This document shows positions 4,511-27,935 of a stretch of DNA of 32,000 nt, in pieces; the first letter of the stretch is position 1; the number at the start of each line of letters is the position of its first letter. Where the stretch lies: assembly GCA_964520895.1 (NCBI GenBank), contig CAZFOR010000003.1, positions 21,823 through 53,822 on the forward strand, given 5' to 3'. This DNA is from an uncultured Eubacteriales bacterium (lineage in GTDB: Bacteria > Bacillota > Clostridia > TANB77 > SIG350). A program made the position numbers and the translations under genes. Under the pieces are notes generated by a model. That model was not told the origin of the DNA. It searched no databases and saw only the letters and a program-made list of their open reading frames with translations.

Positions 4511-4999
4511 ATGAAAATGACTATTATCAATGTAAACAATTTGGTGAAGAACTATGAGACAAAAGAGGCTGTAAAAAACATTTCATTTTCAATTAATGAA
4601 GGTGAAGTAGTAGCATTTATTGGACCAAATGGGGCAGGAAAAACAACAACCGTTAAAATTCTTACAGGCATTTTACATCCGACTAGTGGAAATGCTCAGG
4701 TTTGTGGAATTATACCTTGGGAAAAAAGAATGAAACTAGGGTATAATATTGGATGTTTGTTTGGACAAAAAAGTCAATTAAATCAAGCTCTTCCAGTTAT
4801 AGATAGCTATATTCTTCTAGGAGCAATATATGATATAGATAAGGAAGAGTTAATGAAAAGAATTGATGAGTATGCAACATATTTTGGTGTCAAAAAACTT
4901 ATAACTAAAAAAGCAAGTTATAATTGTGCTAGAGAAAAATATTTTTCAAATTTAAAAAAGTTTATTAAATGGAGTAATTATAATCCAATTAATTGTTGA
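4511..4999 (+). pseudogene. ABC transporter ATP-binding protein, 5' fragment only
   Basis: Walker A (GPNGAGKTT) and the Q-loop region (LFGQKSQL) are present. The ABC-like sequence stops near aa 133. There is no LSGGQ signature, Walker B or H-loop. The remaining about 30 codons are unrelated read-through into the next promoter. Confidence 0.75.
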
Positions 5000-5084: not shown

Positions 5085-6194
5085 ATGGTAACGAGAGATC
5101 CTAATACCAAAGTAAAAACGCTGATGTTAACAGTGACAGAATCGTGCAATTTGTGTTGCGTTTATTGTTATGAACATAATAAGACTGCAAATGCAATGAG
5201 TTTTGAGACAGCTAAACGGATAATTGATGAAGAATTTATGGCAGATGATGGGTTTGAAGCAATTGAAGTTCAGTTTTTTGGTGGTGAGCCATTTGTTGAA
5301 TTTGAATTAATGAAGCAAGTTCATGATTATGTATATTCACTTGAGACGAAAAAAGAAAGAATTTGTTTTGCAATAACAAATGGTACATATGTACATGGCG
5401 AAATTCAGAAATGGTTAAGAAAACACAAAGACACATTTTGCGTTGGATTAAGCTTAGATGGAACAAAGAAAATGCATGATATGAACAGAAGGAAACATAA
5501 TGGAGAAGGTTCTTTTGAGGATATTGACATTGGCTTTTATAAAGAGTGTTGGCCTTTCCAAGACATCAAAATGACAGTTTCAAGACAAACTTTACCATAT
5601 CTTGCAGAAGGCATCATGTATATTCAAAATTTGGGATTTAATGGTGCAGGAAGTTTTGCTTATGGAATTGACTGGGATTTGGAGAAAGATTTGCCAATTT
5701 TGGAAAAGCAACTTGACATACTTGTCGATTATTACATTAAAAATCCTAGTGTTTCAGTTGCAAAGATTATTTCTATGCCAATTCAAAATATTGAATATAC
5801 CTTGGAAGAAGGATTTAAATGGTGTGGTGCAGGAACACAGATGAAATGTTATGATGTTAATGGAAATGTATTTCCATGTCAATTTTTTATGGGATTGACA
5901 ATAGGAGAACTGTCCAAAATCAACGAAAATGTTTTTCAACAAAAAGATGTGAAACTTGTAGATGACAAATGTGCTAGTTGTCCTTTGTATTCCATATGTC
6001 CAACTTGTTATGGTGTAAATTACGCTGAATCGGGTAATCTTTATGAAAGAGATGATGCACATTGTGAAATAAACAAGAGAATAATCCTTGCTAATGCAAA
6101 GATACAGTATCACAAGATAACAGCAAAAGATCAAATAACGGTGGATGATTATTATATTCTCAAAGCAATAGAGAATATCAATAATTTTCTATAA
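5085..6194 (+). CDS. Radical SAM/SPASM-domain peptide-modifying enzyme (anSME/QhpD-like, no N-terminal RRE)
   Basis: RBS AAGGAGG lies 9 nt upstream. CX3CX2C is at C21/C25/C28 (SCNLCCVYCYE), followed by FGGEPF and GTKKMHDMNRR. The C-terminal auxiliary-cluster cysteines are WCGAG..C-x10-C, CASCPLYSICPTC and HC. 369 aa. Confidence 0.9.
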   Translation: MVTRDPNTKVKTLMLTVTESCNLCCVYCYEHNKTANAMSFETAKRIIDEEFMADDGFEAIEVQFFGGEPFVEFELMKQVHDYVYSLETKKERICFAITNGTYVHGEIQKWLRKHKDTFCVGLSLDGTKKMHDMNRRKHNGEGSFEDIDIGFYKECWPFQDIKMTVSRQTLPYLAEGIMYIQNLGFNGAGSFAYGIDWDLEKDLPILEKQLDILVDYYIKNPSVSVAKIISMPIQNIEYTLEEGFKWCGAGTQMKCYDVNGNVFPCQFFMGLTIGELSKINENVFQQKDVKLVDDKCASCPLYSICPTCYGVNYAESGNLYERDDAHCEINKRIILANAKIQYHKITAKDQITVDDYYILKAIENINNFL

Positions 6195-6223
6195 ATTATT
6201 TTTTTTGAAAGGAGGAAAACATA

Positions 6224-6427
6224 ATGCTGAAACTTTCAAAAGACCAAATGGTATCTGTTGCTAACTTGATTAAAGCTAATTTGAAGTTTGAAAGTAGAAC
6301 TCCTATATTAGCGTCAGCGGGAGGATGCAATAGCTGCAATGGTGGATGCCAGAGTAGCTGTGGCGGATGCAGCGGAGGTTGTGGAACAGGTAATACTTGT
6401 GCAGTAACATTAGACATTTTTACATGA
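6224..6427 (+). CDS. Gly/Cys-repeat RiPP precursor peptide (67 aa)
   Basis: RBS GAAAGGAGG. The start is 29 nt after the rSAM stop. The 34-aa leader has no Cys and ends ILASAGG. The core is CNSCNGGCQSSCGGCSGGCGTGNTCAVTLDIFT, with 7 Cys. A hairpin terminator follows. Confidence 0.8.
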   Translation: MLKLSKDQMVSVANLIKANLKFESRTPILASAGGCNSCNGGCQSSCGGCSGGCGTGNTCAVTLDIFT

Positions 6428-8739: not shown

Positions 8740-8865
<126 letters not shown>

Positions 8866-8872
8866 GTTTTAT

Positions 8873-8947
8873 TGGTGACCCGTAGCAGATTCGAACTGCT
8901 GTCGCCGCCGTGAAAGGGCAGTGTCTTAACCACTTGACCAACGGGCC
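8873..8947 (-). tRNA. tRNA-Glu (anticodon UUC)
   Basis: The reverse complement is GGCCCGTTGGTCAAGTGGTTAAGACACTGCCCTTTCACGGCGGCGACAGCAGTTCGAATCTGCTACGGGTCACCA. The anticodon loop is CTTTCAC. It closely resembles the Bacillus tRNA-Glu as I remember it. Confidence 0.9.
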
Positions 8948-8952
8948 TAATA

Positions 8953-9028
8953 TGGTGAGCCATCGCAGATTCGAACTGCGGACAACTTGATTAAAAGTCA
9001 AGTGCTCTACCGACTGAGCTAATGGCCC
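8953..9028 (-). tRNA. tRNA-Lys (anticodon UUU)
   Basis: The reverse complement is GGGCCATTAGCTCAGTCGGTAGAGCACTTGACTTTTAATCAAGTTGTCCGCAGTTCGAATCTGCGATGGCTCACCA. The anticodon arm is CTTGA-CTTTTAA-TCAAG. Confidence 0.9.
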
Positions 9029-9046
9029 ATTAGCTAACGCTCCTAT

Positions 9047-9075
9047 ATCTTACAATATTTTTTAAGAGTTGTCAA
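9047..9075 (-). promoter_or_regulatory. Sigma-A promoter of the tRNA-Lys/Glu/Thr operon
   Basis: The minus strand reads TTGACA-17 nt-TAAGAT and ends about 19 nt upstream of the tRNA-Lys 5' end. Confidence 0.55.
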
Positions 9076-9258
9076 CACTTTTTTAAAAATTTTTTAGATT
9101 ATTTAGATTTTTTTTATACATATTTTATTTTTATACAATATTCAACAATTTTTTATGTCATATTATATAGTTTTACCCAAAAATATAGGTATTATTCTTG
9201 TATTTTTATCTAAAATGTAGTATATTTCATTTAGATGTAATTTGGAAGGAAGATTGTT

Positions 9259-12200
9259 ATGGGAGACATCATAAAATATAATTTAACAAATCAACAAAAA
9301 GCTTTATATAACATAGATAAAGTGTATAAAAATAGTAAAATAAACAATATATCTTTTTGGTTAGAAATAAACCATGTAATAAATTTTGAACTATTAACAA
9401 AAGCGATAAATGTTATTGTAGAAAAAAATGATAATTTTAGATTTCAATTTGTAGAAGAAAACGGAGAAATATATCAATATGCAAGAGAGTATACATATCA
9501 AAACTTTGAAATTTTAGATGTTGCAAACTCAAAAGAATTAGAACAGAAAATAAAAGAATATACATTTGATTTAGAAAATGATAATTTATGTGTATTTACA
9601 TTATTTAGATATCCAGATGGTAAAGGCGGTATTGTTGCTTCAGCACATCATCAACTTGGTGATGCGTGGACAATGGGAATATTTATAAATGAAGTATTAG
9701 ATATTTATCATAAATTGTTAATTAATGAAGATGTATCAGATTTAACATATCCTTCATATTTAGAATATGTTAATACACAAAATGAATATATTCAATCTGA
9801 AAAATATATAAAAGATAAAGAATATTGGGAAGAAGTTTTTTCAAATAATATAGAAAAGCTGTCATTTAAAGAAGAGAGTTTTGATATTAATGCAATTAGA
9901 GAAGAATATGAAATTAACGAAGAAATATTAAAAGATATTAGAAGTTTTTGTACTGAAAATAAAATTTCTGAGTATGTATTTTTTCTATCAGTCTTTTGCA
10001 TATATTTAGGCAAGTTAAAAGGATTAAACAATTTTGTAATAGGTAATCCAATATTAAATAGATCTAATTTTAGAGAAAAATGTACATCAGGGTTATTTAT
10101 GTCTACAATGCCATTTGTAGTTAATATAGATGATGAATTAAACTTTATAGATTATGCAAAAAACATAGCATCTGGGCAAATGAAAATGTATAAACATTTG
10201 AAATATCCAGATTATGAAATAACAAAATATTTTAATCAAAAAAACAATACACATGGACCAATTTATGATTTCGTTTTTTCATATCAAAATGCAAAAACAG
10301 ATAAAGATACTGTAATGTTTGAAACAAAGACTAGATGGATGGAAGCAGGCCAGCAACTAAATTCATTAATGATACACTTTAAAGATACAGAAGATACAGG
10401 AAGACCAATTTTAATTTATGATTATTTATCAGAAATTTTTACTGGGCAAGATATTGATATTTTAAATAAAAGAATAATGGAAATATGTAAACAAGTATTA
10501 ACTAATATACAATTAGCTGATATAGAGATTATAACAAGTGAAGAAAAACAATATTTGGTAAATAATTGTAATAATACATATTTTGAATATGATAGAAATA
10601 GCACGATTGTGAGTAGGTTAGAAAAGACAATTAGTGAGACAAACAATGAAATAGCATTAATATATGGTAATGAAAAATTATCATATAGTGATTTAAATAA
10701 ACAGGCAAATAAACTAGCTAGGTATATGCAAAAATTAGGTGTAAAACAAAATGACATTATACCTATTATTGATAGTCGTAGTATTGATATGATAATTGGT
10801 ATGTTTGCAATTATGAAATTAGGGTGTGCATATTTACCAATTGATATAGAGTATCCAAAAGATAGAATTGAATATATTATATCAGATGCAAGTGCCAAAT
10901 TAGTTTTAACTAAAAAAGAGTATAAAGATAGATTTGAAACTAGTGGTAAAAAAATATTTATAGATACAAATGAATATGAAGATGAGCAAGATACAAATTT
11001 AAATACTAATATTTTACCTGATGATTTAGCGTATTTAATATATACATCAGGTTCTACAGGTAAGCCAAAAGGTGTAATGTTATCACATAGAAATGTTGTT
11101 AATTTTACTCAAGGTACTAGTAATATTATTTGTTTTAAAAATAAAACAATTGTATCTGTAACAACAATTTCTTTTGATATATTTGTTTTAGAATCATGGC
11201 TAAGTTTAATAAAAGGTGCAAAAGTGGTTATTGCAAATGAAAATGAGCAAAATATTTCACATAATTTAAATAAACTATGTTTAGAAAATAATGTTCAAAT
11301 GATACAAACAACACCTTCAAGAATGAAGTTATTAATTAGTGATAATGAAAATATACAGTTTATTAAAAATATGACAGATATAATGATAGGTGGAGAGGCT
11401 GTACCATATAAATTAATTGAGGATTTAAGAAAAATTACTAATGCACGAATTTTTAATATGTATGGACCAACTGAAACTTGTGTATGGTCAACAATAAAGG
11501 AATTAACAAATGATAATATTGTTACAATAGGTAAGCCTATTGCAAATACAACTGTGTATGTATTAAATAAAAATAAAAGATTATGTCCAATTGGAGTTGC
11601 AGGTGATTTGTATATTGGTGGAGATGGTGTATGCAAAGGATATTACAAAAAACAAGAATTAACAAATGAGAAGTTTATCAAAAACATATATAATAAAGAT
11701 GAAATTATTTATGAAACAGGTGATATTGCAAAATGGGATAATAATGGTAACTTAATCTGTTTAGGAAGAAATGATTTTCAAATTAAAATAAATGGACATA
11801 GAATTGAAATAGAAGAAGTTGAAAACACTATATTTAAATATGGAGATATAACAGAGGTAGCTGTTGTATCAATAAATAATCAAGCATTATATGGATATTA
11901 TACAAGTAATAAACCTATTGATAATACTAAATTAAGAGTATTTGTGGCAGAGAAGCTACCAACATATATGGTACCAACGAAATTTATACAAATAGATGAT
12001 ATGCCAAAAACACCAAATGGTAAAATAGACAGGAAAAAAATTATTGCATTTAGTAATAATACTCAGTGTGAGCAAGAAGAAATAATTGAGCCAAGAAACG
12101 AAATAGAAGACATATTATTTAAAGCATTTACTCAAATAATAGATAAGAAAATTAGTATAGATAAACCATTTTTTGATTATGGATTTGATTCATTATCAAT

Positions 12201-13524
12201 TATAAAAGTGCAAACATTATTATTAAAAAATAAATGGAATATTACTTTACAAGATTTTTATAAATATCCTACAATTGAACAATTAGCAAAACATATTTTA
12301 AATAAATATGAAAATGGTTCTAAGTACGATAATGAATATGAGGATTTACCAACAATTAGGGAAAATATAAATAATATTTATATAAGTGGTAATAAAAATA
12401 ATTACAAAAATATTTTACTTACCGGTTGTACAGGTTTTATAGGGATACATGTATTACAAGAACTTCTATTAAATACTGATGCAAATATTTATTGTATTAT
12501 TAGAAGTAAAAACGACCTAAGTCCTATTTACAGATTAGAGGAAAAATTAGATTTTTACTTTAATGGTAAATATAAAGAATTTATTGGGAATAGAATTATT
12601 GTTATTGAAACAGATATTACAAAAGATGTTAATATACAAGATAAAATACAAGATATTGATTTAGTAATACATTCAGCAGCACTTGTAAAACATTATGGTG
12701 ATGTTGAGTTATTTAAAAAGGTTAATATACAAGGTACACAAAATATAATAAATATATGTAAAAAATACAATAGTGTTTTGTGTTATTTATCATCACTTAG
12801 TGTATCAGGAAATTATTTAGTTAAACAAGATAATAGGGATAAAGAATTTACTGAAGATAATTTATATATTGGACAAAGATATCAAGACAATGTCTATGTA
12901 TATAGTAAATTCGAGTGTGAAAAACTTATATATAATGAAATTAAAAATGGATTAAAAGCATCAGTATATAGAATTGGTATAGTATCAGGTAGAGCTACTG
13001 ATGGTTTAATGCAACAAAATATATCTGAAAATGCTTTTTATAACAGGATTAAAGCAATTGTTGATTTAAAAAATATATCACAAAATATGTTTGATCAAAG
13101 TGTAGAGTTTACACCAGTTGACTTGTTAGCACAAGCATTAGTTAAATTAGTTCAAATACCAGAAAGTATTAATAAGGTATATCATTTGTATAATGATGAA
13201 TTGTTTAGCATTAAAGATGTTTTACAAGCATTAAGTTTATTAGATATTAATATTAATGTACTTTCTAGCAAAGAGTTTGATGGATTAATTAAACAAATAT
13301 CATCAAATATTAATGAAAATAGCAAACTTGGGGGAGTTATTAATGATTTCTATAATACAGATGAAGGTATTGGATTAAATTATGATTTCACTATTAATAT
13401 AAGAGCTGATAAGACGAAGAAATACTTAGAAAAATTAGGCTTTAAATGGATTAATAGTAAGTTTGAGAAAGAGATTTATTTAAGAAAGATATTTAGATAT
13501 ATGAGAAATGTAAATTATATATAA
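9259..13524 (+). CDS. Single-module non-ribosomal peptide synthetase, C-A-T-R (terminal thioester reductase)
   Basis: C domain: HHQLGDA at aa 130-136. A domain: LAYLIYTSGSTGKPKGV, FDIFVLE, NMYGPTE, GDLYIGGDGVCKGY and PKTPNGKIDRKK. T domain: FFDYGFDSLS. R domain: LLTGCTGFIG (Rossmann) and YVYSK (YxxxK). 1421 aa. Confidence 0.95.
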   Translation: MGDIIKYNLTNQQKALYNIDKVYKNSKINNISFWLEINHVINFELLTKAINVIVEKNDNFRFQFVEENGEIYQYAREYTYQNFEILDVANSKELEQKIKEYTFDLENDNLCVFTLFRYPDGKGGIVASAHHQLGDAWTMGIFINEVLDIYHKLLINEDVSDLTYPSYLEYVNTQNEYIQSEKYIKDKEYWEEVFSNNIEKLSFKEESFDINAIREEYEINEEILKDIRSFCTENKISEYVFFLSVFCIYLGKLKGLNNFVIGNPILNRSNFREKCTSGLFMSTMPFVVNIDDELNFIDYAKNIASGQMKMYKHLKYPDYEITKYFNQKNNTHGPIYDFVFSYQNAKTDKDTVMFETKTRWMEAGQQLNSLMIHFKDTEDTGRPILIYDYLSEIFTGQDIDILNKRIMEICKQVLTNIQLADIEIITSEEKQYLVNNCNNTYFEYDRNSTIVSRLEKTISETNNEIALIYGNEKLSYSDLNKQANKLARYMQKLGVKQNDIIPIIDSRSIDMIIGMFAIMKLGCAYLPIDIEYPKDRIEYIISDASAKLVLTKKEYKDRFETSGKKIFIDTNEYEDEQDTNLNTNILPDDLAYLIYTSGSTGKPKGVMLSHRNVVNFTQGTSNIICFKNKTIVSVTTISFDIFVLESWLSLIKGAKVVIANENEQNISHNLNKLCLENNVQMIQTTPSRMKLLISDNENIQFIKNMTDIMIGGEAVPYKLIEDLRKITNARIFNMYGPTETCVWSTIKELTNDNIVTIGKPIANTTVYVLNKNKRLCPIGVAGDLYIGGDGVCKGYYKKQELTNEKFIKNIYNKDEIIYETGDIAKWDNNGNLICLGRNDFQIKINGHRIEIEEVENTIFKYGDITEVAVVSINNQALYGYYTSNKPIDNTKLRVFVAEKLPTYMVPTKFIQIDDMPKTPNGKIDRKKIIAFSNNTQCEQEEIIEPRNEIEDILFKAFTQIIDKKISIDKPFFDYGFDSLSIIKVQTLLLKNKWNITLQDFYKYPTIEQLAKHILNKYENGSKYDNEYEDLPTIRENINNIYISGNKNNYKNILLTGCTGFIGIHVLQELLLNTDANIYCIIRSKNDLSPIYRLEEKLDFYFNGKYKEFIGNRIIVIETDITKDVNIQDKIQDIDLVIHSAALVKHYGDVELFKKVNIQGTQNIINICKKYNSVLCYLSSLSVSGNYLVKQDNRDKEFTEDNLYIGQRYQDNVYVYSKFECEKLIYNEIKNGLKASVYRIGIVSGRATDGLMQQNISENAFYNRIKAIVDLKNISQNMFDQSVEFTPVDLLAQALVKLVQIPESINKVYHLYNDELFSIKDVLQALSLLDININVLSSKEFDGLIKQISSNINENSKLGGVINDFYNTDEGIGLNYDFTINIRADKTKKYLEKLGFKWINSKFEKEIYLRKIFRYMRNVNYI

Positions 13525-13535
13525 GGAGATGAATT

Positions 13536-15563
13536 ATGTTGAATTTTTTAAAGAAACATAAATATAGTATAAGGGTATTATTTGATTATAATTTAATTAT
13601 AATATTAGTGGTATTAGCACTATATTTTACAGTTCCAACAATTATGAATTATTTGCCAGAAACAATTAATACACAGTTTGATGTAATGATGTCATTTATT
13701 TCATATAGACAACAGTATTTAATAATAATGATGCTTTTCTTAATAATTACAAATCCAATATTATTAATTTTATTAAAGAGTATATTTAAACTGGAAAATG
13801 AAATATCTACAAATGATGATTGGAAAGAAAATAAAGAGTTAATAAGTAAAGTAAGGAAAGATTGTTACAAAATACCATATACTATATTTTTAATTCAGCT
13901 TTCTATTGCAGTAATAGTAGTACTTGGAATATTAGTAACAACAGGTAGTCATGATTGGTTAATGATAATTAAAGTATCACTATTAGTATTAACATTTGAT
14001 GTTTTAGCAACAGTTATGTCATTTATTCTTTCAAAAAGGGTGTTTACAAAAATATTAGTAACGCTGCCATATGATGAAAATAATAAATGGTTTAGAATAT
14101 CATTAAAAAGTAAAATGTTAATGTTGATATTACCTATGTTATTAATGGCACTACTTTTTACATCATTAGTTGGATATACTAGAATATCATATGAAAAAGG
14201 TAATATATTACATGATGCATATGAAAAGTTTTTATTTGATATTTCTGAAAAATCACAAGATGGATTAACAGATGAGCAAATAAATAATGAATTAAATAAT
14301 ATTGAATTTATTAATAAAAATCATAATAGAGTTATTATTTATGAAGATGAAACATATAAAAGTATAGATGATAAAGGAGTAACAGATTTTATTATAAAAT
14401 ATACATTACAGATTTCAAACAAATATGATGGGAAAATAATGGATAGTTATGGTAAAGACATACAAGGTGTGATGAAAAGAGTATATAACGTTGATAAGCA
14501 GCAATATTGTTATATAGGTGTAATATATGACTTGTCATCACCAGGTGCATTAGCATTTTTGCTAGTGTCATCAATGTTGTTCTTTATACTAAACTTTATT
14601 GTATTAAGAAGTGTATCAAATGAAATTACAAATGGTGTAACAATGTCATTAGAAAGACTTCAAGAAATATCTGAAAATAGAAATGATTATACAAAAAGTA
14701 AACATAGTTTAAAAGTTATATCAAATGATGAAATGGGTGAACTTGCAATTGTATTTAATAAGATTCAGGAATTAACTAATGAATATATTAATGAGATACA
14801 TGATGGTCAAGAAACACTTATGGAAAAAGATAGACTTGCATCACTTGGACAGTTGATGGGAGGTATAGCACATAACTTAAAAACACCTATTATGTCAATA
14901 TCAGGTAATCTGCAAGGACTTCAAGATTTGATTACAGAATATAATGTATCTGTTGGTGATCCAGAAGTAACAACTGATGACCATAAAGCAATTGCAAATG
15001 ATATGCAAGAATTGGTAGATAAAACTAGAATTCATTTATCATATATGTCAGATGTAATTACAGCTGTTAAAGGTCAAGCAGTTCAATTAGACTCATCTGA
15101 AACACAGATATTTGGGGCATTAGAAGTTGCAAGTAGAATTGAGATATTAATGAAACATGAGCTTAAAAGTGCATTAGTTGAAATGAAAGTAAATGTTGAA
15201 GAAGAGGCAAAAACAGGATATATCAAAGGTGATATAAATAGTTTAGTTCAAGTATTAAATAACTTAGTTCAAAATGCTATATATGCAAGTAAAGATGCTG
15301 AAAATAAAGTTATATATTTTGATATAAGCAAACAAGATAATAAAATATGTTTTAAAGTTCAAGATAATGGTTGTGGTATACCACAAAATATACAAGAAAA
15401 ATTATTTAAAGAAATGGTTACTACAAAGGGTAAAAACGGAACAGGCTTAGGGTTATATATGTCATATTCAACAATTAGAGGAAAGTTTAATGGTACATTT
15501 GAATTTGAATCAAAAGAAGGAGAAGGTACAACATTCTATATTAAAATACCTGTAAGTCAGTAA
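13536..15563 (+). CDS. Multi-TM sensor histidine kinase (orphan)
   Basis: RBS AAGGAG overlaps the NRPS stop. There are about 6 N-terminal TM helices plus an extracytoplasmic segment and a HAMP-like linker. The H-box is GGIAHNLKTPI. N, G1 and G2 boxes are NLVQNAIYAS, QDNGCGIP and GTGLGLYMS. Confidence 0.9.
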   Translation: MLNFLKKHKYSIRVLFDYNLIIILVVLALYFTVPTIMNYLPETINTQFDVMMSFISYRQQYLIIMMLFLIITNPILLILLKSIFKLENEISTNDDWKENKELISKVRKDCYKIPYTIFLIQLSIAVIVVLGILVTTGSHDWLMIIKVSLLVLTFDVLATVMSFILSKRVFTKILVTLPYDENNKWFRISLKSKMLMLILPMLLMALLFTSLVGYTRISYEKGNILHDAYEKFLFDISEKSQDGLTDEQINNELNNIEFINKNHNRVIIYEDETYKSIDDKGVTDFIIKYTLQISNKYDGKIMDSYGKDIQGVMKRVYNVDKQQYCYIGVIYDLSSPGALAFLLVSSMLFFILNFIVLRSVSNEITNGVTMSLERLQEISENRNDYTKSKHSLKVISNDEMGELAIVFNKIQELTNEYINEIHDGQETLMEKDRLASLGQLMGGIAHNLKTPIMSISGNLQGLQDLITEYNVSVGDPEVTTDDHKAIANDMQELVDKTRIHLSYMSDVITAVKGQAVQLDSSETQIFGALEVASRIEILMKHELKSALVEMKVNVEEEAKTGYIKGDINSLVQVLNNLVQNAIYASKDAENKVIYFDISKQDNKICFKVQDNGCGIPQNIQEKLFKEMVTTKGKNGTGLGLYMSYSTIRGKFNGTFEFESKEGEGTTFYIKIPVSQ

Positions 15564-15578
15564 TATATGTAGATTGAT

Positions 15579-15613
15579 AAATATGGTGGGATTAATTTTC
15601 TGCCATATTTTTT
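15579..15613 (+). terminator. Terminator after the histidine kinase
   Basis: AAATATGG...CCATATTT stem followed by TTTTTT, 16 nt after the stop. Confidence 0.6.
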
Positions 15614-15802
15614 GATTGAATTATAACATTCTCAAAAGTTATTATATAAGACATTATCATAAATTAATCATAGATTAAAGCATAAAATATAAGTTGAATA
15701 ATGACAATTATGTAAATATATAGTATAATTGTATTGATATAATTTATATATTAAATTGAAAGTAAAAAATGTTGTATATAAAAATATATAGGAGTGATAA
15801 AA

Positions 15803-16855
15803 ATGGTAGATATGAAAGTTATAAAAGGTGGAAAAGCTAATAAAAATGTTAATAAACGTTATATGGGTTCTTATAAATATAGTAAAGAGGACATTAAAGA
15901 ATTATTAAGTAATTTGGGTATTATATATAAAGAAAGCATGAAGAAACAAGAACTATTTAATTTATTATATGATACATATAATAATGGCAATATAGATAAT
16001 TTAATATATATACTTTCAAATAATGCTATAGATATGCTAAATAGAATACTAAAAGGTAATTGCAAAATAATAGTTAATTCTGATACATCATTTTATACAA
16101 TGAGTAGTATACTTGAATTAATTAGTATATTAGTTATAGAAGCTGAGATTACTGATAATATAAATGAAATGATATTTGATACTAAGCTTAATAATAATAT
16201 TAATGAAGGTATTAATAGGTTGTTTTCAGATGAGTATAAAACAAAAATTAACAAAATAAATAAACTATCACAAATTATGAAAGCAATTGTTTATGTTTAT
16301 GGTGTAATTGAATATGACGAAATGATACAAATGTTAAATAGGTTATTTAAAAATAAAGTTGATGAACATGATATTTATATGTTGATTATGCATAGTATTG
16401 ATTTTAATCAATTTATTGATTTTATAGACATAGATGATGTAGAGTATTTCTGTCAGTCTGGAGTATATAATATTGAAGAAATATTAGAGGAAAGGGAAAA
16501 AAGAAATATTACATATAAAAAATATAGTTTAAAAGAGTTAGAGATGATTATTGATGGTCAATTTAAACCATCACAAGCAGAATTAGATTTATATGAATTT
16601 TTGTGTGATATTCATGAGGAAGGACAAAATTTATTTTACTATATTAGCAATCAGATTTCGACAAATACTGATAGTAATGATATAACAGATTATATGCATA
16701 TTAAAGAATTACAGTTAAATAGAAAAGACCTAGAAAAATATCTAGATTTATACAATAATGCGTATAATCATATTGCACAATATGCATTATATGGCTATTC
16801 TCCTATTGAACTTATGGAGAAGATGAAAAATAAAGGTGTATATAAACTATATTAA
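15803..16855 (+). CDS. Hypothetical protein (about 350 aa), no recognisable catalytic motif
   Basis: Long ORF. I prefer the ATG at 15803 (AGGAG 8 nt upstream) over the track start at 15794. A SAP/Rho-N-like helix pair lies near the N-terminus (SKEDIKELLSNLGIIYKESMKKQELFNLL). Confidence 0.65.
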   Translation: MVDMKVIKGGKANKNVNKRYMGSYKYSKEDIKELLSNLGIIYKESMKKQELFNLLYDTYNNGNIDNLIYILSNNAIDMLNRILKGNCKIIVNSDTSFYTMSSILELISILVIEAEITDNINEMIFDTKLNNNINEGINRLFSDEYKTKINKINKLSQIMKAIVYVYGVIEYDEMIQMLNRLFKNKVDEHDIYMLIMHSIDFNQFIDFIDIDDVEYFCQSGVYNIEEILEEREKRNITYKKYSLKELEMIIDGQFKPSQAELDLYEFLCDIHEEGQNLFYYISNQISTNTDSNDITDYMHIKELQLNRKDLEKYLDLYNNAYNHIAQYALYGYSPIELMEKMKNKGVYKLY

Positions 16856-17005
16856 ATTAAAGAAAAATTAAACTTAAAAATATGGTTTAATTTTTTTCTA
16901 TTATTCTATGTTCTATTAGCATAATTAAGTTCTGAAAAATCACAAAAACAAGATAATTAAGTTGATAAAGTAATGTATTATTATGGTAATAAAGGAGATG
17001 CTTTT

Positions 17006-18305
17006 ATGGAAAGAAAAATAATGAAAGATTTAATAAAATGGAAACAAAATAAAAGTGAGAGATTACCATTAATAGTATATGGTGCAAGGCAAGTTGGAAA
17101 AACATATATATTAAAAGAATTTGCCCAAAGACATTATACTGATTATGTGTATATTAATTTTGAGCAAATGGATTATGCTAAAACAATATTTGATAAAGAA
17201 TTAATACCAGATAAAATAATTGTTATGTTAGAAAGATATTTAAAGAAAAAAATTATACCTGAGCAAACATTAATTATATTTGATGAAATACAAATTTGTG
17301 AAAGAGCATTAACATCTTTAAAGTATTTTGCAGAACAAGCAAGTGAATATCATATTATATGTGCTGGTAGTTTTTTAGGTGTTGCTATAAATAGAGAAAA
17401 ATTTTCATTTCCAGTTGGAAAAATTGAAATGATTAATTTATATCCTTTGGATTTTGAGGAGTTTTTATGGGAAATGGGAGAAAAAGATTTAGCAGATAAT
17501 ATTAAATTAAGTGTACAAAAAAGGAAACCATTGTCTATTTTTGAACATGAAGATGCATTAGAATTATATAGGACATATCTAATAACAGGTGGAATGCCTG
17601 CAATAGTTCAAGATTATTCAATAAATAAAAATTTTGATAATACAAGACAAAAACAAAATGATATTATAAATTCATATATTACAGATATGGCAAAATATGC
17701 AACAGCTAGTGAAACTACTAAAATTAGAACAGCTTATGACTCATTACCATTACAAATAGCAAAAGAAAATAAAAAGTTTCAATATAAACTTATAAAAAAA
17801 GGTGCAAGTAGTTCAAATTTTGGGGAAGCTATAGATTGGTTAGAATTAGCAAAAGTGGTATTAAAATGTAAAAAAATTGAGCAAATAAAAAAACCATTGG
17901 AAGGTTATATGGATTTAAGTAGTTTTAAATTGTATATGGGTGATATAGGGTTACTTACATATAAATCAAAAATTTCACCAGAAGACATATTATTAGAGTC
18001 AAAAGAAATTAATGAATTTAGAGGACGGTTTAACTGAAAGCTATGTAGCACAAGCTTTAATTACTAATAGATATGATTTGTATTATTGGGTATCAGAAGG
18101 AAAAGCAGAAATTAATTTTATAATAATGAAGGATAATGAGATAATACCTGTTGAAGTAAAAGCTAATGACCATGTAAGAGCTAGAAGCTTATCAGTATAT
18201 GTACAAAGATTTAAACCTAAGTATAGTATAAGGATTTCTAGTAAAAACATAGGGTTTGATAATAATATATTATCAATACCTTTGTATGCTGTATTTTGTA
18301 TATAA
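17006..18305 (+). pseudogene. AAA+/DUF4143-type ATPase, paralogue of 521-1813, frameshifted
   Basis: MERKIMKDLIKWKQ...GARQVGKTY...IIFDEIQ runs parallel to the intact copy. The frame breaks at about 18026 (…NEFRG | GLTESYVAQAL…). The two track ORFs 16973-18037 and 18012-18305 together make one protein. Confidence 0.8.
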
Positions 18306-18372: not shown

Positions 18373-19452
18373 ATGTATATACAAAAAGTAAAATTAAAAA
18401 ATTTTAGAAATTATATAAATGAAGAAATAGATTTGGATGAAAATTTAAATATATTTATTGGCAATAATGCACAAGGAAAGACTAATATAATTGAGAGTAT
18501 ATATTTATCTGCAATTGGTAAGTCTTTTAGAACGAATTATGATGAAGAAATGATAAATTTTCAAAATGATAATTTTAGTATAGATATTGAGTATATTAAA
18601 AATGATAGACAAAATAGTGTTAATATTTTTTTAGAAAAAGATAAACGTAAATTAGTTAAAATTAATGGTATTAAAATTGATAAATTAAGTCAAATATTAG
18701 GAAATGTTAATGTTATACTTTTTTCGCCAGATGAATTAAAAGTGATAAAACAATCACCTAGTGTTCGAAGAAAGTTTTTTGATATATCTATTAGCCAAAT
18801 AAAGCCTATGTATTTGCATTATTTACTTGAATACAATAAAATATTAGTACAAAGAAATAATTTGCTAAAACAGCTAAGAACTAATCAATCCTTAATACAA
18901 ACTATTGACATATGGAATGAAAAACTTGTTGAAACAGGAATGAAAGTTATGGAAATGAGACATAAGTATATAGATAATATCTCAAAAATCTTGCCTGATA
19001 GACATAAAACGATTTCTGATAATAAAGAAAAACTAGAATTAAAATATATTCCTAATTGTGAAACAAAAGAAGTTTTTTATGATAAATTGTCAAAATACTT
19101 GAAATATGATATCGAAAGAGGTTATACTAGTAATGGAATACATAAAGATGACTATATGTTTTATATAAATGATATTGAACTTAGCAAGTTTGGGTCGCAA
19201 GGACAACAAAGAAGTGGAATACTTTCATATAAATTAGCTGAGATAGATAATATGTATGAAGAGTTTGGTGAATATCCAATATTATTATTAGATGATGTTA
19301 CATCTGAATTAGATAATGATAGAATAAATAAGTTACTTGAAAATCTTAAAAGATATCAAACAATAATAACATGTACAGATATAGATAATTTTAAAATATT
19401 AGATAAATATAAGGTGTTTAATGTAAAAGAAGGAATAGTAAAAGAGGTGTAA
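18373..19452 (+). CDS. recF: DNA replication and repair protein RecF
   Basis: MYIQKVKLKNFRNY...GNNAQGKTNIIESIY (Walker A), the signature region SQGQQRS and Walker B ILLLDDV. 359 aa. Confidence 0.9.
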   Translation: MYIQKVKLKNFRNYINEEIDLDENLNIFIGNNAQGKTNIIESIYLSAIGKSFRTNYDEEMINFQNDNFSIDIEYIKNDRQNSVNIFLEKDKRKLVKINGIKIDKLSQILGNVNVILFSPDELKVIKQSPSVRRKFFDISISQIKPMYLHYLLEYNKILVQRNNLLKQLRTNQSLIQTIDIWNEKLVETGMKVMEMRHKYIDNISKILPDRHKTISDNKEKLELKYIPNCETKEVFYDKLSKYLKYDIERGYTSNGIHKDDYMFYINDIELSKFGSQGQQRSGILSYKLAEIDNMYEEFGEYPILLLDDVTSELDNDRINKLLENLKRYQTIITCTDIDNFKILDKYKVFNVKEGIVKEV

Positions 19453-19455
19453 GTT

Positions 19456-20509
19456 ATGAGAAAAAATCAAATATCAACAGATAATGGATATAAGATATTA
19501 GTAGTTGATGATGAACAAGGTATAATTGATTCTATGTCAATATTTCTACGAAGAAGCGGATATGAGGTTAGAGGTATAACTAATCCATTAGAGGCTATTG
19601 AAACGATGAGAGTAGAACAATTTGATTTGTTATTACTTGACTATATTATGACACCAATACATGGAGATAAAGTAATTGATGAAGTAAGAAAGTTTAATAA
19701 AGATTTATACATATTATTGTTAACAGGACATAAGGATTTAGCTCCACCACTTGAAACAATAAAGAAATATGATATTCAACGGATATTGTGAAAAAAGTGA
19801 TAATCCTAATCAAGTGTTGCTTTTAATTGAATCAGCTTTAAAGTCTGTTGAGCAAGTAAAGACTATTAAAAGAATTAATGAAGAACTACATGAATCAAAT
19901 ACTAAACTTGAACAAGCATATATGGGAACAGTTGAAGCACTTAGAGTTGCTGTTGATGCAAAAGATACATATACAAAAGGTCATTCTGATAGAGTAGCAT
20001 ATTATTCAAAGTTGTTAGCAAAAGAAGCTGGACTTGAAGAAAAAGACCAAGAAAGAATTTATTTAGGAGGACTATTCCATGATATAGGTAAAATAGGCGT
20101 TCCTGATAATATATTACAAAAACCAGGAAAATTGTCTGATGATGAATATAGTGAGATAAAAAATCATCCATTAATTGGTACACAAATTATAAATGCGGCA
20201 TCAATATTTCAAGATATTATCCCTATTGTAAAACATCATCATGAAAGATATGATGGAAGAGGGTATCCTTCAAAATTAACTGGAAAAGATATTCCGTTAT
20301 ATGCTAGAATAACAGCAATAGCAGATTCTTTTGACGCAATGACATCTGACAGACAATATAGGCCAAGAATGAATTTACAAGAGGCATTAGATGATATTTT
20401 AAAAAACTGTGATATTCAATTTGATGGAGAACTTGCAAAATTATTTGTTACACTAATTAATAGGGATAAAGATATAATTCAAAAAGAAATGGATCATGTT
20501 TTTTATTAA
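19456..20509 (+). pseudogene. Response regulator receiver + HD-GYP phosphodiesterase, interrupted by a frameshift
   Basis: The REC domain (ILVVDDE...LLLLDY...LLTGH) ends at a TGA at 19789-19791. The +1 frame continues GYCEKSDNPNQ...GHSDRVA...HHERYDGRGYP. Removing one nt near 19780 restores ...KKYDIQGYCEKSD... Confidence 0.8.
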
Positions 20510-20618: not shown

Positions 20619-20695
20619 GTACCCATAGCTTAATTGGATAGAGCATCTGACTACGGATCAGAAGGTTGGAGGTTCAAATCCTCTTGGGTACGCCA
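20619..20695 (+). tRNA. tRNA-Arg (anticodon ACG)
   Basis: GTACCCATAGCTTAATTGGATAGAGCATCTGACTACGGATCAGAAGGTTGGAGGTTCAAATCCTCTTGGGTACGCCA. The anticodon arm is TCTGA-CTACGGA-TCAGA, and CCA is encoded. Confidence 0.9.
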
Positions 20696-20707: not shown

Positions 20708-21585
20708 CTATTTCACTTCTTTATTTTTGTGTAATTTAAATTGTTCATCAATTATTTCTAAGTTTTTAATACTATTATTGTTTTTTAATAATTCTAGTTG
20801 TTTTTGAGCTATATTATTTAATTTTATTATTCTTTCTTTTTGGGATATTCCAGTTGATATCATATCTGCATTTAAATTTTCTAAGTTGGTTAAAACAATT
20901 AAATGTAATATGTCCGTATAATCTCTAATATTACCTTCTAAATTGGGATTTTTATCTCGCCATTCTTTTGCGGTTATACCAAATAAAGCAACATTTAAAA
21001 CATCTGCCTCATTTGAATATACATATTGTTTTTGTTGATCACTTATAGTTGGTACAATAAATTCTTTTATACTATCTGTATGAATAATATAATTGGTTTT
21101 TGATAATTCCCTTTTTACAGACCATTCAATTTTATTTTTATATGATTCATTAATTTTTAATCTTTCGAATTCTGTTATTAAATATAATTTAAACTCCGAA
21201 CTTAACCAACTAGCAAATTCAAAAGCAATATCTGGATGAGCAAATGTTCCAATGCTGTACTTTCCCCCTTTACTAATAATTCCTATGCTATTTGTTCTTT
21301 TTATCCATTGGGTTGGTGACATTGAAAAAGAATTTTTACCATATTCAGTTTTAATTTGGTCGAATTCGACCAAATTAAAACTATTATTATGTAATTGTTC
21401 CCAAAGTCCTATATAATCAATAGTATCTATTCTTCGTAGCCAGTTTTTGACTGTAAAAGAGGGATCACTTGAATTTTGATATTTTGCTAAATCTGTTAGT
21501 GAAATAAAATCGATATTGTTTAGTCTAGAAATTCTTTTGATGTATCTTTAACTAATATTTCAGTGCTTATAATTTTTCTTTCCAT
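20708..21585 (-). pseudogene. KilA-N domain protein (phage/mobile-element DNA-binding family), frameshifted near the 5' end
   Basis: ATG at 21585 (RBS AAAGGA) gives MERKIISTEILVKDTSKEFLD then a stop at 21520-21522. The adjacent frame continues ...LNNIDFISLTDLAKYQNSSDP...WLRRIDTIDYIGLWEQLHN...FAHPDIAFEFASWLSSEFKLYL, the classic KilA-N pattern. The track ORF 20708-21373 is only the tail. Confidence 0.7.
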
Positions 21586-22267: not shown

Positions 22268-24223
22268 ATGAAAAAAGTTTTAATAATAATAATGGTATTT
22301 TGTCTAGCTCTTTCAACTTTTGCATTTGCAACACAAGAAGTAGAAGAAGAAATAGATGATCGTGCCAATATAAACATTTCAGAAAATCAGACATATACTT
22401 TTGCTGCAACAGATTTTTCAACAAGATTTAATGCATTAGATGTAGGAGCTCTAACAGATGTAATAATTACTTCACTTCCAACAGAAGAACAAGGAGTACT
22501 TTCAATATCAAATACACCAATTGAAGAAGAAGCTCTTCCAAAGACTATAGCAATAGCAAGTATTACAACATTAAAATTTGAACCTGCTGCTGACTTTACA
22601 GGAACAGCAAGTTTTAATTGGAAAGGTAAAGCAACAGATTTAACAGTACAAGAAGTATTTACTACAAATTTAATAGTTTCATCACCTACTAATATAGTTA
22701 ATATTAATATGAAACAAAATGAAGTTTATCAATATAAAGCTAATGATTTCACAGAGAAATTTGCTTTGTTAGATGTAGGAGATTTGACAAGAGTAGTAAT
22801 TACTGAATTACCATCTAATGGAACTCTTAAAGTTAATGATACTGCAATAACAACAGTACCAACAGGTATTGATATATCAAATATAGGAACATTAACATTT
22901 ATTCCAGATGAGGATTATGTAGGAACATCAACATTTACGTGGAGGGGTAGAGTAAATAATGTATCAGATGAAACAGTATTTACTACTAATATGATAGTAA
23001 GTAGAGCAGTACCTGAAAATACAGTAAATATTTATGTGAACAAAAATGAAACTTACAGATTTAAGAAAACTGATTTTTCAACAGAATTTGGATTACTAAA
23101 TGCAGGAACATTATCATCAGTGGTAATAGAAACTATGCCAGAGACAACAAAAGGTGTTATTAGATTTAATACAGCAACAATAGAGTTATTACCATATACA
23201 GTTAGTTTATCACAAATAGGATTGTTAACATTTACACCACCTACTGACTTTATAGGAACAGCAACATTTACTTGGACAGGTAAAGTAGATAGTGATGCCA
23301 ATGAAACAGTATTTACAACTAATATAATTGTACAAGAGCCAACTACTGTGACTGCATTAAATGATAGTTTTGAAGTTGATAAAAATACAACATTAAATGG
23401 AACATTAAAAGTAAGTCAAGATGTAGATGTAGTATTTGCAATTGTAACTGATCCAACACATGGAACAATTAGTAATTTAAATGTAGAAACAGGTGAATTT
23501 GCATATATACCGAATGCAGATTATACAGGAGCAGATCAGTTTACTTTTAAAGCATCATATGAAAATGCTGATGGTGATACAGTAGAATCAAATGTAGCTA
23601 CAATTAGTATTAATGTACAAGAAGCTGGAAATGTAATACCATTCCATTATGTGGATATGCAAAAACATTGGGCTAATTATTCAGCATCACATTTAGCAGC
23701 AATGGATATATTTGTTGGTGAAAAGATATCTAATGAGTATTTCTTCAGACCAGAAACTCCAATAACAAGAGCTGATTTTGTAATGTATATGTTAAGTGTA
23801 TTAGATATACCTGCAAGAGATAAAACAGTTTCTTTCACATTTGCAGATGATGCAACAATTGAAGATTGGCTAAAACCATATATTTATACAGCATATCAAG
23901 AAAGCATAATAAATGGTTCATTAGAAAATGGTAAAATATATTTCAATCCAAATAGTCCTATAACAAGAGTAGAAGCAGCTAAGATAATTAATGACTCAAT
24001 GAAATTTAAAGTACAAAATACAGCTACTTTGAAATTTACTGATGTAAATAGTATACCGAGTTGGGCAACAACATCTGTAAAAAATATGGTGGGATATGAA
24101 ATTATTAAAGGTTATGATGACAACACATTTAGACCAATGAATAATATAAACAAAGGTGAATTAGCAGAAATGTTATACAAAGCATTAAGAGAAAAACAAA
24201 TAGAAATTAACACTGCTGAATAA
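22268..24223 (+). CDS. Cell-wall-anchored surface protein: signal peptide, three about 115-aa tandem modules, an Ig/cadherin-like domain and three SLH domains
   Basis: RBS AAGGAGA and signal peptide MKKVLIIIMVFCLALSTFAFA. The repeat motif is N.xxN(Q/E)xYx(F/Y)xxxDF(S/T)xxFxxL(D/N)(V/A)GxL(T/S)xV(I/V)I(T/E)…, seen three times. The C-terminal SLH-like segments are FHYVDMQKHWANY..., FADDATIEDWLKPY... and FTDVNSIPSWATTS.... Confidence 0.9.
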   Translation: MKKVLIIIMVFCLALSTFAFATQEVEEEIDDRANINISENQTYTFAATDFSTRFNALDVGALTDVIITSLPTEEQGVLSISNTPIEEEALPKTIAIASITTLKFEPAADFTGTASFNWKGKATDLTVQEVFTTNLIVSSPTNIVNINMKQNEVYQYKANDFTEKFALLDVGDLTRVVITELPSNGTLKVNDTAITTVPTGIDISNIGTLTFIPDEDYVGTSTFTWRGRVNNVSDETVFTTNMIVSRAVPENTVNIYVNKNETYRFKKTDFSTEFGLLNAGTLSSVVIETMPETTKGVIRFNTATIELLPYTVSLSQIGLLTFTPPTDFIGTATFTWTGKVDSDANETVFTTNIIVQEPTTVTALNDSFEVDKNTTLNGTLKVSQDVDVVFAIVTDPTHGTISNLNVETGEFAYIPNADYTGADQFTFKASYENADGDTVESNVATISINVQEAGNVIPFHYVDMQKHWANYSASHLAAMDIFVGEKISNEYFFRPETPITRADFVMYMLSVLDIPARDKTVSFTFADDATIEDWLKPYIYTAYQESIINGSLENGKIYFNPNSPITRVEAAKIINDSMKFKVQNTATLKFTDVNSIPSWATTSVKNMVGYEIIKGYDDNTFRPMNNINKGELAEMLYKALREKQIEINTAE

Positions 24224-27455: not shown

Positions 27456-27935
27456 CTATAAATTTTTAGACATAATATATGCATCTTCTTTTGTGCCAGT
27501 TACTTGATTTAAGTAATAATCTTTTCGTGTATGTATTATATTAAAACCTAAATTCTGATATAATTTTATTGCAAATTTATTATTAATATTTACTTCTAAA
27601 TTAGCTGTTTTACAATTATTAGTGTTTGCATAATTTAAAGTAAAATTTAATAAATTAGAACCAATTTTCATATTTCTATAATTAACATTTACTGCTATAT
27701 TTAATATTTCCATTTCATCTAAAACGATTTTTATACAAATAAAGCCAGTAATTATATTATTAACAATATCTTTAGATATAATCAAAATATTATTTTCATT
27801 TAATATTTGATTATTAAATATTTCACTATTCCAAGTACATGTAAATATATTTTCTAAATTATCAGAAATGAATTTAACATCAATATTATCTTTACTAACA
27901 TTTTTATCTAATATATTAATATCAGTTTTAATCAT
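27456..27935 (-). CDS. rimI: GNAT acetyltransferase, ribosomal-protein-alanine N-acetyltransferase-like
   Basis: EILNIAVNVNYRNMKIGSNLL...LEVNINNKFAIKLYQNLGF...RKDYY...DAYIM. Its position directly after tsaB (8-nt overlap) is the conserved tsaE-tsaB-rimI arrangement. Confidence 0.75.
   Translation of the reverse strand: MIKTDINILDKNVSKDNIDVKFISDNLENIFTCTWNSEIFNNQILNENNILIISKDIVNNIITGFICIKIVLDEMEILNIAVNVNYRNMKIGSNLLNFTLNYANTNNCKTANLEVNINNKFAIKLYQNLGFNIIHTRKDYYLNQVTGTKEDAYIMSKNL

Follow-up and report, generated by a model that had tools for sequence, protein, structure and literature searches.

Nonribosomal peptide synthetases (NRPSs) that end in a thioester reductase (R) domain have been described from gut Clostridia (Guo et al., Cell 2017), and some of their products carry an N-acyl tail, according to excerpts of PMC8210680. 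The subject of this study is a gene of that general kind, encoding an NRPS of a single module with condensation, adenylation, carrier and reductase domains (C-A-T-R), together with the sensor kinase and response regulator genes downstream of it, in a stretch of 32,000 nucleotides from an uncultured Eubacteriales bacterium (contig CAZFOR010000003.1, positions 21,823 to 53,822). This whole stretch is called the window below, and its G+C content is about 24%. The enzyme type itself is already known, both from the R-terminated NRPSs of gut Clostridia and from stand-alone C-A-T-R precedents such as MxcG. With the gut enzymes the window NRPS shares its small size and reductive release, but it has one A domain where the dipeptide-aldehyde family has two. 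With one module rather than two, its product would be an N-acyl amino aldehyde and not a dipeptide, and could not form a pyrazinone. A linkage of these NRPSs to a kinase and an HD-GYP protein is not mentioned in the literature searched, which excludes Guo et al. itself.

Among characterized enzymes, AusA/PznA (A-T-C-A-T-R) gives the best NCBIfam similarity, with the model NF047350 scoring 666.8 bits over AusA residues 994-2316, which correspond to C-A-T-R, against an equivalog cut-off of 2500; the R domain is similar as well. Compared with AusA, the window NRPS lacks the first A-T module, and its C domain belongs to another, N-terminal class. MxcG (myxochelin) and NpsB (tilivalline) have the same four-domain order on one polypeptide and also release their products reductively, and the similarity to MxcG extends over the full length of the protein (NF038078, 444 bits against a cut-off of 2300). 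Both MxcG and NpsB are supplied with aryl groups by dedicated trans partners whose genes share their cluster, whereas the window holds no trans-partner genes of that kind. The starter condensation (Cs) domains of lipoinitiation, as in the surfactin, calcium-dependent antibiotic (CDA) and rhizomide systems, are alike in that a C domain opens the initiation module; they differ in that the sequence similarity is weak and the window NRPS has an HHxxxDA class of its own. A likeness of another sort is offered by the Rpf system of the diffusible signal factor (DSF), in which RpfF is the synthase, RpfC the sensor kinase and RpfG the REC-HD-GYP regulator. Genes for a synthase, a membrane kinase and a REC-HD-GYP protein are linked here too, both in the window, where the regulator is split, and in most related loci; however, the window has an NRPS in place of the crotonase synthase, its kinase differs from the hybrid RpfC type, and the hosts are Gram-positive anaerobes. 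The comparison suggests a signaling cassette that is analogous in mechanism to Rpf/DSF, not a member of that system.

The reading that we favor, with a probability of roughly 50%, is that the window carries a functional one-module N-acyl-glycine NRPS in a cassette with a kinase and a REC-HD-GYP regulator, and that its product is most likely a signal. The A domain would load glycine onto the carrier domain, as its specificity code indicates. The N-terminal C domain would then acylate the glycine amine, a step to which its position, its clade and its ligase-coupled relatives all point, and the donor would most likely be a fatty acyl-CoA or an acyl-acyl carrier protein (acyl-ACP) of primary metabolism. 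The R domain would release N-acyl-glycinal with NAD(P)H, and a second reduction may give N-acyl-ethanolamine. The NRPS appears to be co-transcribed with a sensor kinase of six transmembrane helices, in a cassette that, with its REC-HD-GYP regulator, is conserved across the family. Because of that conservation, the lipid product would most likely be an autocrine or quorum-type signal sensed by the kinase, and gene linkage suggests that the HD-GYP regulator would turn this signal into hydrolysis of cyclic di-GMP (c-di-GMP).

The NRPS gene and its domains, numbered by residues (aa) of the translation, are as follows.

9259-13524, forward strand: single-module C-A-T-R NRPS gene, 1421 aa, an intact open reading frame (ORF) with an ATG start, recognized by Pfam and NCBIfam.
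9274-10557, forward strand: condensation domain, aa 6-433, motif HHQLGDA, PF00668 at 216.6 bits, placed in a neighbor-joining tree with the family's N-terminal (initiating) type.
10621-12024, forward strand: adenylation domain, aa 455-922, with the Gly-type code DILQMGMVWK, located by Pfam, NCBIfam and motif anchors.
12127-12297, forward strand: carrier (T or PCP) domain, aa 957-1013, with the phosphopantetheine serine in GFDSLS, PF00550 at 39.3 bits, nearest to terminal T domains.
12409-13458, forward strand: thioester reductase domain, aa 1051-1400, with TGCTGFIG, SSLSVSG and YVYSK, recognized by TIGR01746 and PF07993.

Pfam maps Condensation to aa 6-433, AMP-binding to 455-796, AMP-binding_C to 853-922, PP-binding to 957-1013 and NAD_binding_4 to 1054-1293. 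In NCBIfam, the amino-acid adenylation model TIGR01733 scores 404.6 bits, above its cut-off of 317.4; on the R domain PF07993 is above its cut-off (127.7 bits) and TIGR01746 is below its own (153.5 bits against 213). The sequence features expected of a C-A-T-R module are all present, namely HHxxxD in the C domain, D640 and K922 (the equivalents of Asp235 and Lys517) in the A domain, GxDS in the carrier domain, and GxxGxxG with Ser/Thr-Tyr-Lys in the R domain. An earlier annotation of this stretch, which we refer to as the original prediction, had proposed the C-A-T-R architecture from HHQLGDA, GFDSLS, TGCTGFIG and YVYSK; all of these are found in the translation, and the Pfam domains agree with them. 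It had also reported that no gene for a phosphopantetheinyl transferase (PPTase), ligase, MbtH protein or transporter adjoins the NRPS gene. That part stood, and our search of the whole 32-kb window turned up neither a PPTase, MbtH or acyl ligase gene nor one for a stand-alone carrier protein or an intact transporter. The kinase gene, which begins 12 nt past the NRPS stop, had gone unmentioned, and so had the derivation of the protein from a bimodular family; the kinase, being conserved in every family locus examined, alters the likely biological role.

To read the specificity code we used the motif anchors FDIFVLE, IQTTPS, MIGGEA, NMYGPTETCVW and GKIDRK, which gave D640, I641, L644, Q683, M709, G711, M734, V742, W743 and K922. 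The resulting DILQMGMVWK, obtained independently, is the code that had been proposed before as 7/10 identical to the glycine code DILQLGLIWK. The proposed spacings were reproduced as well. D640 and Q683 are 43 residues apart without a gap, matching the 43 residues that we take to separate D235 from T278 in GrsA, and the 26 residues from Q683 to M709, against 21 in GrsA, confirm the 5-residue insertion before GGEA. In a survey of glycine-activating domains, 83 of 93 share one signature that varies only at positions 299 (L/M), 322 (L/M) and 330 (I/V), with DILQLGMIWK as an example (PMC12283262). The window code fits this consensus, DILQ[L/M]G[L/M][I/V]WK, and its departures from DILQLGLIWK fall at precisely these three positions, each with an allowed residue. 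DILQMGMVWK is unchanged in the window, in the one-module relatives P0006, P0007, P0023 and L039, in the more distant L004, and in the first A domain (A1) of P0002-P0005 (P and L numbers are our labels for related proteins and loci); among the close one-module orthologues it is constant despite about 40% overall divergence. Glycine as the substrate of the A domain is thus well supported in silico, and the original prediction on this point gains both from the published consensus and from the invariance of the code in one-module orthologues. A match to LgrA, linear gramicidin synthetase, had at first seemed close to its Gly-activating second A domain, but was dropped as independent evidence for glycine, because its PDB score of 557 bits is the sum of two A-domain matches (288 + 267 bits) and because the code of LgrA A2 differs.

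In a neighbor-joining tree of C domains from the family, all N-terminal C domains, including that of every stand-alone protein, form one clade apart from the internal C2 and C3 domains. The best solved match of the window C domain in a PDB sequence search is TycC6, an LCL domain, at 81 bits, compared with 262 bits for the internal C2 domain of P0002, which has the canonical motif MHHIISDG; the starter domains RzmA-Cs and CDA-C1 reach 32 and 22 bits. On the strength of the separate clade and of these scores, we regard the domain as belonging to a family-specific initiating class that is, as far as sequence comparison goes, neither a typical elongation C domain nor a canonical Cs domain. It begins at aa 6 and, like a Cs domain, is the first domain of an initiation module. 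The HHxxxDA motif (HHQLGDA in the window) is kept in the C domain of all stand-alone relatives, and the Gly-to-Ala change at its last position is common to the whole N-terminal class, including L004 and L006, where a ligase-like gene is coupled to the NRPS gene.

That gene offers the strongest hint at the function of the C domain. Starter C domains N-acylate the first amino acid from acyl-CoA or acyl-ACP (PMC11546977). In L004-L007, a gene encoding 567-576 aa, whose product has the AMP-binding and AMP-binding_C_3 domains but lacks a carrier domain, lies 4-14 nt 5' of the C-A-T-R gene and is translationally coupled to it; its best NCBIfam matches, which are below cut-off, are long-chain-fatty-acid-CoA ligases. 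L004 also shares with the window the glycine code, the sensor class of the kinase (see below) and the closest R domain outside the window NRPS's own clade. By homology, these ligase-coupled relatives support N-acylation from an acyl-CoA-type donor in the window enzyme too, and, since the window clade has no ligase nearby, the donor would be drawn from the general acyl-CoA or acyl-ACP pool.

For the R domain, the best solved matches are the PCP-R didomain of Mru_0351 (6VTJ, 182 bits), the aldehyde-forming AusA-R (128 bits) and the alcohol-forming MxaA-R (104 bits), and aligned relatives retain both the nucleotide-binding motif and the Ser/Thr-Tyr-Lys residues. Mru_0351, the closest solved structure, comes likewise from a rumen organism, Methanobrevibacter ruminantium, and its product is likewise not known; it differs in being a far longer multimodular NRPS, of which the crystallized PCP-R part is residues 3701-4187. 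According to the Mru_0351 paper (PMC8024701), it is unclear what determines how far an R domain reduces its substrate, and for this reason two- and four-electron release are not predictable from sequence; a call of aldehyde or alcohol release on that basis was considered and rejected. Taken with the preceding sections, this allows the original prediction to be judged as a whole. Its competent terminal R domain is supported by the conserved motifs and by the matches to solved R domains, and its starter C domain is strengthened by the N-terminal clade and the ligase-coupled relatives and weakened by the distance to solved canonical Cs domains. In sum, glycine, an initiating C domain and a competent R domain were upheld, which leaves the original prediction partly supported.

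The family to which the enzyme belongs gives some indication of how the one-module form arose. About 460 relatives came out of a database search, and almost all are metagenomic proteins of 2400-2490 aa (mostly 2470 aa) with the order C-A-T-C-A-T-R. The named relatives are metagenome-assembled genomes of Clostridia or Clostridiaceae, and the nearest relatives come from human-gut, Hadza-gut and ruminant metagenomes. Residues 1-1016 of the window NRPS are 59% identical to module 1 of P0002 and 38% identical to module 2. Taken domain by domain, C is closest to C1 (47-58%) and A to A1 (60-67%) of P0002-P0005, and T and R are closest to the terminal T and R domains. Judged by these relationships, the window NRPS is a module-1 C-A unit joined to a terminal T-R unit, the one-module form of a C-A-T-(C-A-T)n-R family, and relative to the bimodular form it is thus missing one T-C-A unit. 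The one-module form recurs in P0006, P0007, P0023 and L039, at 58-61% identity to the window NRPS, and in a more distant set at 32-43%, consisting of L004, L005, L006 (Clostridium sp. CAG:245), L007, L008, L009, L023 and L040. L004 has a Gly-type code; elsewhere in the distant set we read DSELTAEVCK (L008 and L009), DIFQMAGIFK (L005 and L006), DAYFCGAIFK (L040) and DLTKIGEVGK (L007), the last of which we take to be Asn-like. Scanning metagenomes added no close one-module loci to these, with no match above 43% identity, and the best match in a search of a genome collection was 42% identical and bimodular.

The two- and three-module relatives are paralogous architectures. L026 (1611-12308) and L027 are trimodular, (C-A-T)x3-R, and kinase-linked, and modules 1 and 3 of L026 have the Gly-type code DILQLGMIWK. 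In L028 (7956-12305; 14140-15684) and L029, a C-A-T unit is followed by about 400 C-terminal residues without a Pfam match in the place of the R domain. This C-A-T-X form is paired with a class II kinase (see below) and a longer REC-DUF3369-HD-GYP regulator, and its C-terminal part may be a novel release domain.

Selection on the one-module form was assessed with L002, L003 and L039, for which synonymous divergence (dS) is about 0.5-0.6. For the whole gene, the ratio of nonsynonymous to synonymous substitution (dN/dS) is 0.13-0.18. The C, A, T and R domains taken singly lie within 0.09-0.23, and the C domain within 0.16-0.20, so that each is under purifying selection and the one-module architecture, C domain included, is being kept. 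A comparison of the window with L014 was uninformative, as there are only 3 substitutions between the copies.

The signals and genes around the NRPS gene that matter for the cassette are listed here.

9195-9227, forward strand: promoter-like block TTGTAT-17 nt-TATATT, about 30 nt upstream of the ribosome-binding site and ATG of the NRPS gene, conserved, and occurring once in the window.
13536-15563, forward strand: sensor histidine kinase gene, 675 aa, with a class I sensor, starting 12 nt after the NRPS stop.
15579-15610, forward strand: terminator-like hairpin and T-run, 16 nt after the kinase stop.
18373-19452, forward strand: recF, TIGR00611 at 359 bits, above cut-off.
19456-20509, forward strand: REC-HD-GYP response regulator gene, split into ORFs 19456-19791 and 19769-20509, Pfam Response_reg, HD_5 and HD.

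In the window kinase, five transmembrane helices are separated from a sixth by a loop domain of about 120 aa, and a HAMP-like segment, HisKA and HATPase_c come after the sixth. A homologous kinase gene is found 3' of the NRPS gene, at a distance of about 3-130 nt, in all of the approximately 24 non-redundant NRPS-anchored loci with downstream sequence (the window, L001-L006, L008, L009, L012, L013, L015-L018, L021-L028, L030-L033 and L036-L038). The wider flanks differ among these loci, and no other gene is as conserved as the kinase. With regard to transcription, the promoter-like block is near-identical in the window, L002, L003, L039 and the bimodular L038, in intergenic DNA that has otherwise diverged, and it is a putative promoter; the hairpin is the probable end of an NRPS-kinase operon. 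A generic promoter scan gave counts equal to those in shuffled sequence and was replaced by the block from the comparative alignment. We also looked for a riboswitch or c-di-GMP-binding RNA 5' of the NRPS gene, and found only tRNAs with Rfam at the gathering threshold and one chance-level match in a permissive search of 9020-9300. Just 5' of the NRPS gene, at 8790-9028 on the reverse strand, are genes for tRNA-Thr(TGT), tRNA-Glu(TTC) and tRNA-Lys(TTT), and a promoter-like TTGACA of this array is conserved in L002, L003, L039 and L038.

The translated regulator, present in the window as parts of 111 aa and 246 aa, carries HD and HHExxDGxGYP motifs and is predicted to be of the c-di-GMP phosphodiesterase type. 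Its gene directly follows the kinase gene in L004-L006, L008, L009, L021, L023 and L028, and is about 0.6 kb downstream in L026. An interposed recF precedes it in the window, L001, L002, L012, L013 and L039. In L015 it is encoded on the other strand, and in L017 it is 7 kb off. Because the regulator has no DNA-binding domain, the cassette is not a classical pathway-specific transcription regulator. The recF gene keeps its position in L001, L002, L012, L013 and L039, is not at that position in L004-L009, and is probably outside the NRPS-kinase-regulator system.

The kinases fall into two sensor classes. Those of class I have no Pfam match in the sensor, a length of 635-681 aa and the same layout of five plus one transmembrane helices as the window kinase; those of class II have HisKA_7TM and PAS domains and a length of 600-612 aa. 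Every one-module C-A-T-R locus has a class I sensor, and every bi- or trimodular locus, along with the C-A-T-X form, has a class II sensor, with no exception. The rule extends to cases where other similarities cross it, such as P0002, which has the C-A unit nearest to that of the window NRPS, and P0010, the sister of the C domains from L004-L007. L012 and L013, which have the recF arrangement and a kinase core 67% identical to that of the window kinase, compared with 63% for the one-module L001 and L002, conform to it too. In the reverse direction, a search with the class I sensor region alone returned nine protein clusters, and in the two contexts inspected, those of P0124 (47%) and P0128 (30% in the sensor region), the kinase gene is directly 3' of a C-A-T-R gene of 1425-1426 aa. 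The order of secondary-structure elements in an AlphaFold2 model suggests that sensor residues 217-335 may be PAS/PDC-like. Tentatively, we raise the possibility that the kinase has the NRPS product as its cognate ligand, in which case the trio might represent a family of lipid amino- and peptide-aldehyde signaling systems, not previously described, that set c-di-GMP in uncultured gut and rumen Clostridia and switch sensor class with module number.

Two further features of the neighborhood were observed. In 19 fetched loci, some of them redundant, and also in L036 and L040, a gene for an HtrA-like trypsin-PDZ serine protease lies divergently 5' of the NRPS gene (for example L004 6467-7600, L006 840-1982, L009 7636-8763, L015 and L017); it is absent from the window clade, L012 and L013. 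Peptide aldehydes inhibit serine and cysteine proteases, which makes this neighbor worth recording. Between the kinase gene and recF, at 15794-18305, the window has a 353-aa ORF without a family match and an AAA_14/DUF4143 ATPase gene split into 354-aa and 97-aa parts, an intact paralogue of which is at 521-1813. At the same site recF directly follows the kinase gene in L012 and L013, L001 and L039 have a Bro-N gene, and L002 has a 199-aa ORF, so this interval appears to be an insertion hot spot.

Several observations weigh against the reading of a functional N-acyl-glycine NRPS in a signaling cassette. The C domain does not cluster by sequence with characterized Cs domains (sensu Rausch et al.), as its low scores against RzmA-Cs and CDA-C1 already indicated, and no gene for an acyl ligase, ACP or PPTase was found in the window or in four syntenic one-module loci. 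The N-acyl-glycinal or N-acyl-ethanolamine product is a prediction from sequence, reasonable but unproven. In L001 (9168-13447) the one-module NRPS is split into a C fragment of 255 aa and a remainder of 1148 aa; the closely similar L039 has an intact NRPS of 1426 aa, and its kinase, P0124, is found on 22 contigs. Aligned with the genes of L001, L002 and L012, which are intact and encode 350 aa, the window regulator gene has one extra C near 19781, and this 1-nt insertion may be either an assembly error or real erosion. The REC-HD-GYP gene was not found within 1.4-1.9 kb past the kinase gene in L022, L027, L030-L033 and L036. Foldseek found no significant match for the AlphaFold2 model of the class I sensor (pLDDT 71), the best being a model of WalK with E = 0.02. 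Finally, the T-R region and the sensor-coding region are contiguous DNA, and the pattern of sensor classes is therefore explicable without a ligand relationship, as the two could co-vary because they are inherited or recombined as a single block, with no matching of sensor to ligand.

Other explanations of the locus must be weighed beside this one. The same chemistry could serve a different end if the product were exported, as an inhibitor of host or competitor proteases or as a lipid for a host receptor, and the kinase and regulator, as mere neighbors or as control of the locus, did not sense it at all. Gut dipeptide aldehydes have been reported to inhibit host proteases, some of them being N-acylated (Guo et al. 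2017, as excerpted in PMC8210680), N-acyl-glycinal is known from mammalian lipid metabolism (excerpts of PMC2689249), and the HtrA-like gene stands divergently 5' of the NRPS gene in 19 related loci. We nevertheless consider an exported effector unlikely, given that adjacency of the kinase is universal among the loci and its sensor class changes with the size class to which the predicted product belongs, that the regulator has an enzymatic HD-GYP output in place of the DNA-binding domain of a classical cluster regulator, and that no exporter gene adjoins; as a matter of general reasoning, too, a lone glycine aldehyde offers little for a protease to recognize. The chemistry itself would change if the C domain took an aminoacyl or aryl thioester from a separate A-T or carrier protein, as half of a split dimodular system, for the product would then be an X-Gly dipeptide aldehyde leading to a pyrazinone or dihydropyrazinone. 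MxcG with MxcE/F and NpsB with NpsA/ThdA are presumably precedents for such trans partners. In its favor, the nearest relatives have two modules, NCBIfam ranks AusA module 2 and MxcG highest, the latter itself a C-A-T-R enzyme that works with trans partners, and no donor-activating gene adjoins. However, there is no A-T or carrier gene in the window, L001, L002 or L039, and where stand-alone relatives do have a partner, it is the T-less enzyme resembling fatty-acyl-CoA ligases, so that a split dimodular system seems to us decidedly improbable.

The remaining explanations would deny the protein its N-acylating function. If the C domain were vestigial, the enzyme would be an A-T-R amino-acid reductase that frees aminoacetaldehyde or ethanolamine, perhaps with self-condensation to pyrazines as in PvfC-like systems. 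A-T-R chemistry suffices for release, there is no acyl donor gene nearby, and the motif is HHxxxDA and not the canonical HHxxxDG, but the DA ending is typical of the entire N-terminal C class, with ligase-coupled L004 and L006 among its members, the HH and D residues are kept in all stand-alone relatives, and the C-domain dN/dS of 0.16-0.20 amounts to purifying selection; a vestigial C domain is accordingly a very poor prospect. Least probable of all is that deletion of a module left a non-functional gene in a cassette that is eroding in the window genome, as might be read from the frameshifted regulator, the split NRPS of L001 and the pseudogenized neighbors (a truncated ABC fragment, and the DUF4143 ATPase in two pieces). 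A frameshift of a single base may stem from misassembly, and decay is difficult to reconcile with an intact ORF of 1421 aa in which all catalytic motifs are present, with a one-module form kept across lineages 32-59% identical, with dN/dS well below 1 in every domain, or with an intact L001-type copy on 22 contigs.

Elsewhere in the window, a radical SAM/SPASM maturase gene at 5085-6194 (forward strand) has its best matches, both below cut-off, among PapB-family maturases and those of CXXX-repeat targets. A 67-aa ORF at 6224-6427 (forward strand) ends in GGCNSCNGGCQSSCGGCSGGCGTGNTC, with Cys at every fourth residue, and looks like the precursor of this maturase; the two (5085-6427) are likely a pair for a ribosomally synthesized and post-translationally modified peptide (RiPP). 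The truncated ABC ATPase fragment, at 4511-4999, is upstream in the RiPP locus, about 4 kb 5' of the NRPS gene, and is the only transporter-related ORF of the window. The G+C content of the RiPP locus is 0.32, compared with 0.24 elsewhere. Following the response regulator gene are tRNA-Arg(ACG) at 20619-20695 (forward strand) and a KilA-N domain gene at 20708-21373 (reverse strand). The intervals 22268-24223 (forward), 25056-27443 (reverse), 27456-29071 (reverse) and 29457-30953 (forward) hold a surface protein that is SLH-anchored and bears Ig-like and cadherin-like repeats, a LonC-like protease, a rimI-tsaB-tsaE operon and a 498-aa ORF without a family match.

In full-text searches of the literature we found no NRPS route to N-acyl-glycinal and no linkage of an NRPS with a kinase and an HD-GYP protein. 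N-acyl-glycinal is described, in excerpts of PMC2689249, as a mammalian intermediate between N-acyl-ethanolamines and N-acyl-glycines. If reduction by the window NRPS reaches the alcohol, the enzyme would be an NRPS-based bacterial source of N-acyl-ethanolamine-type lipids in the gut. For the family as a whole, the predicted products fall into classes by module number, with N-acyl amino aldehydes from one module and N-acyl peptide aldehydes from two or three, and the natural series of module loss and gain (one, two and three modules, and C-A-T-X) should be useful for the study of NRPS recombination units. Until now, R-terminated NRPSs from gut Clostridia were understood to produce inhibitors of host proteases, and here a whole branch of the enzyme type is tied to a sensor kinase and, in most loci, to a predicted c-di-GMP-degrading regulator. 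The one-module glycine version is its simplest member, with a predicted product that is easily synthesized and belongs to a lipid class with mammalian signaling relatives. If that product is the ligand of the kinase, these loci would be self-signaling circuits in abundant uncultured gut anaerobes, testable with synthetic ligands.

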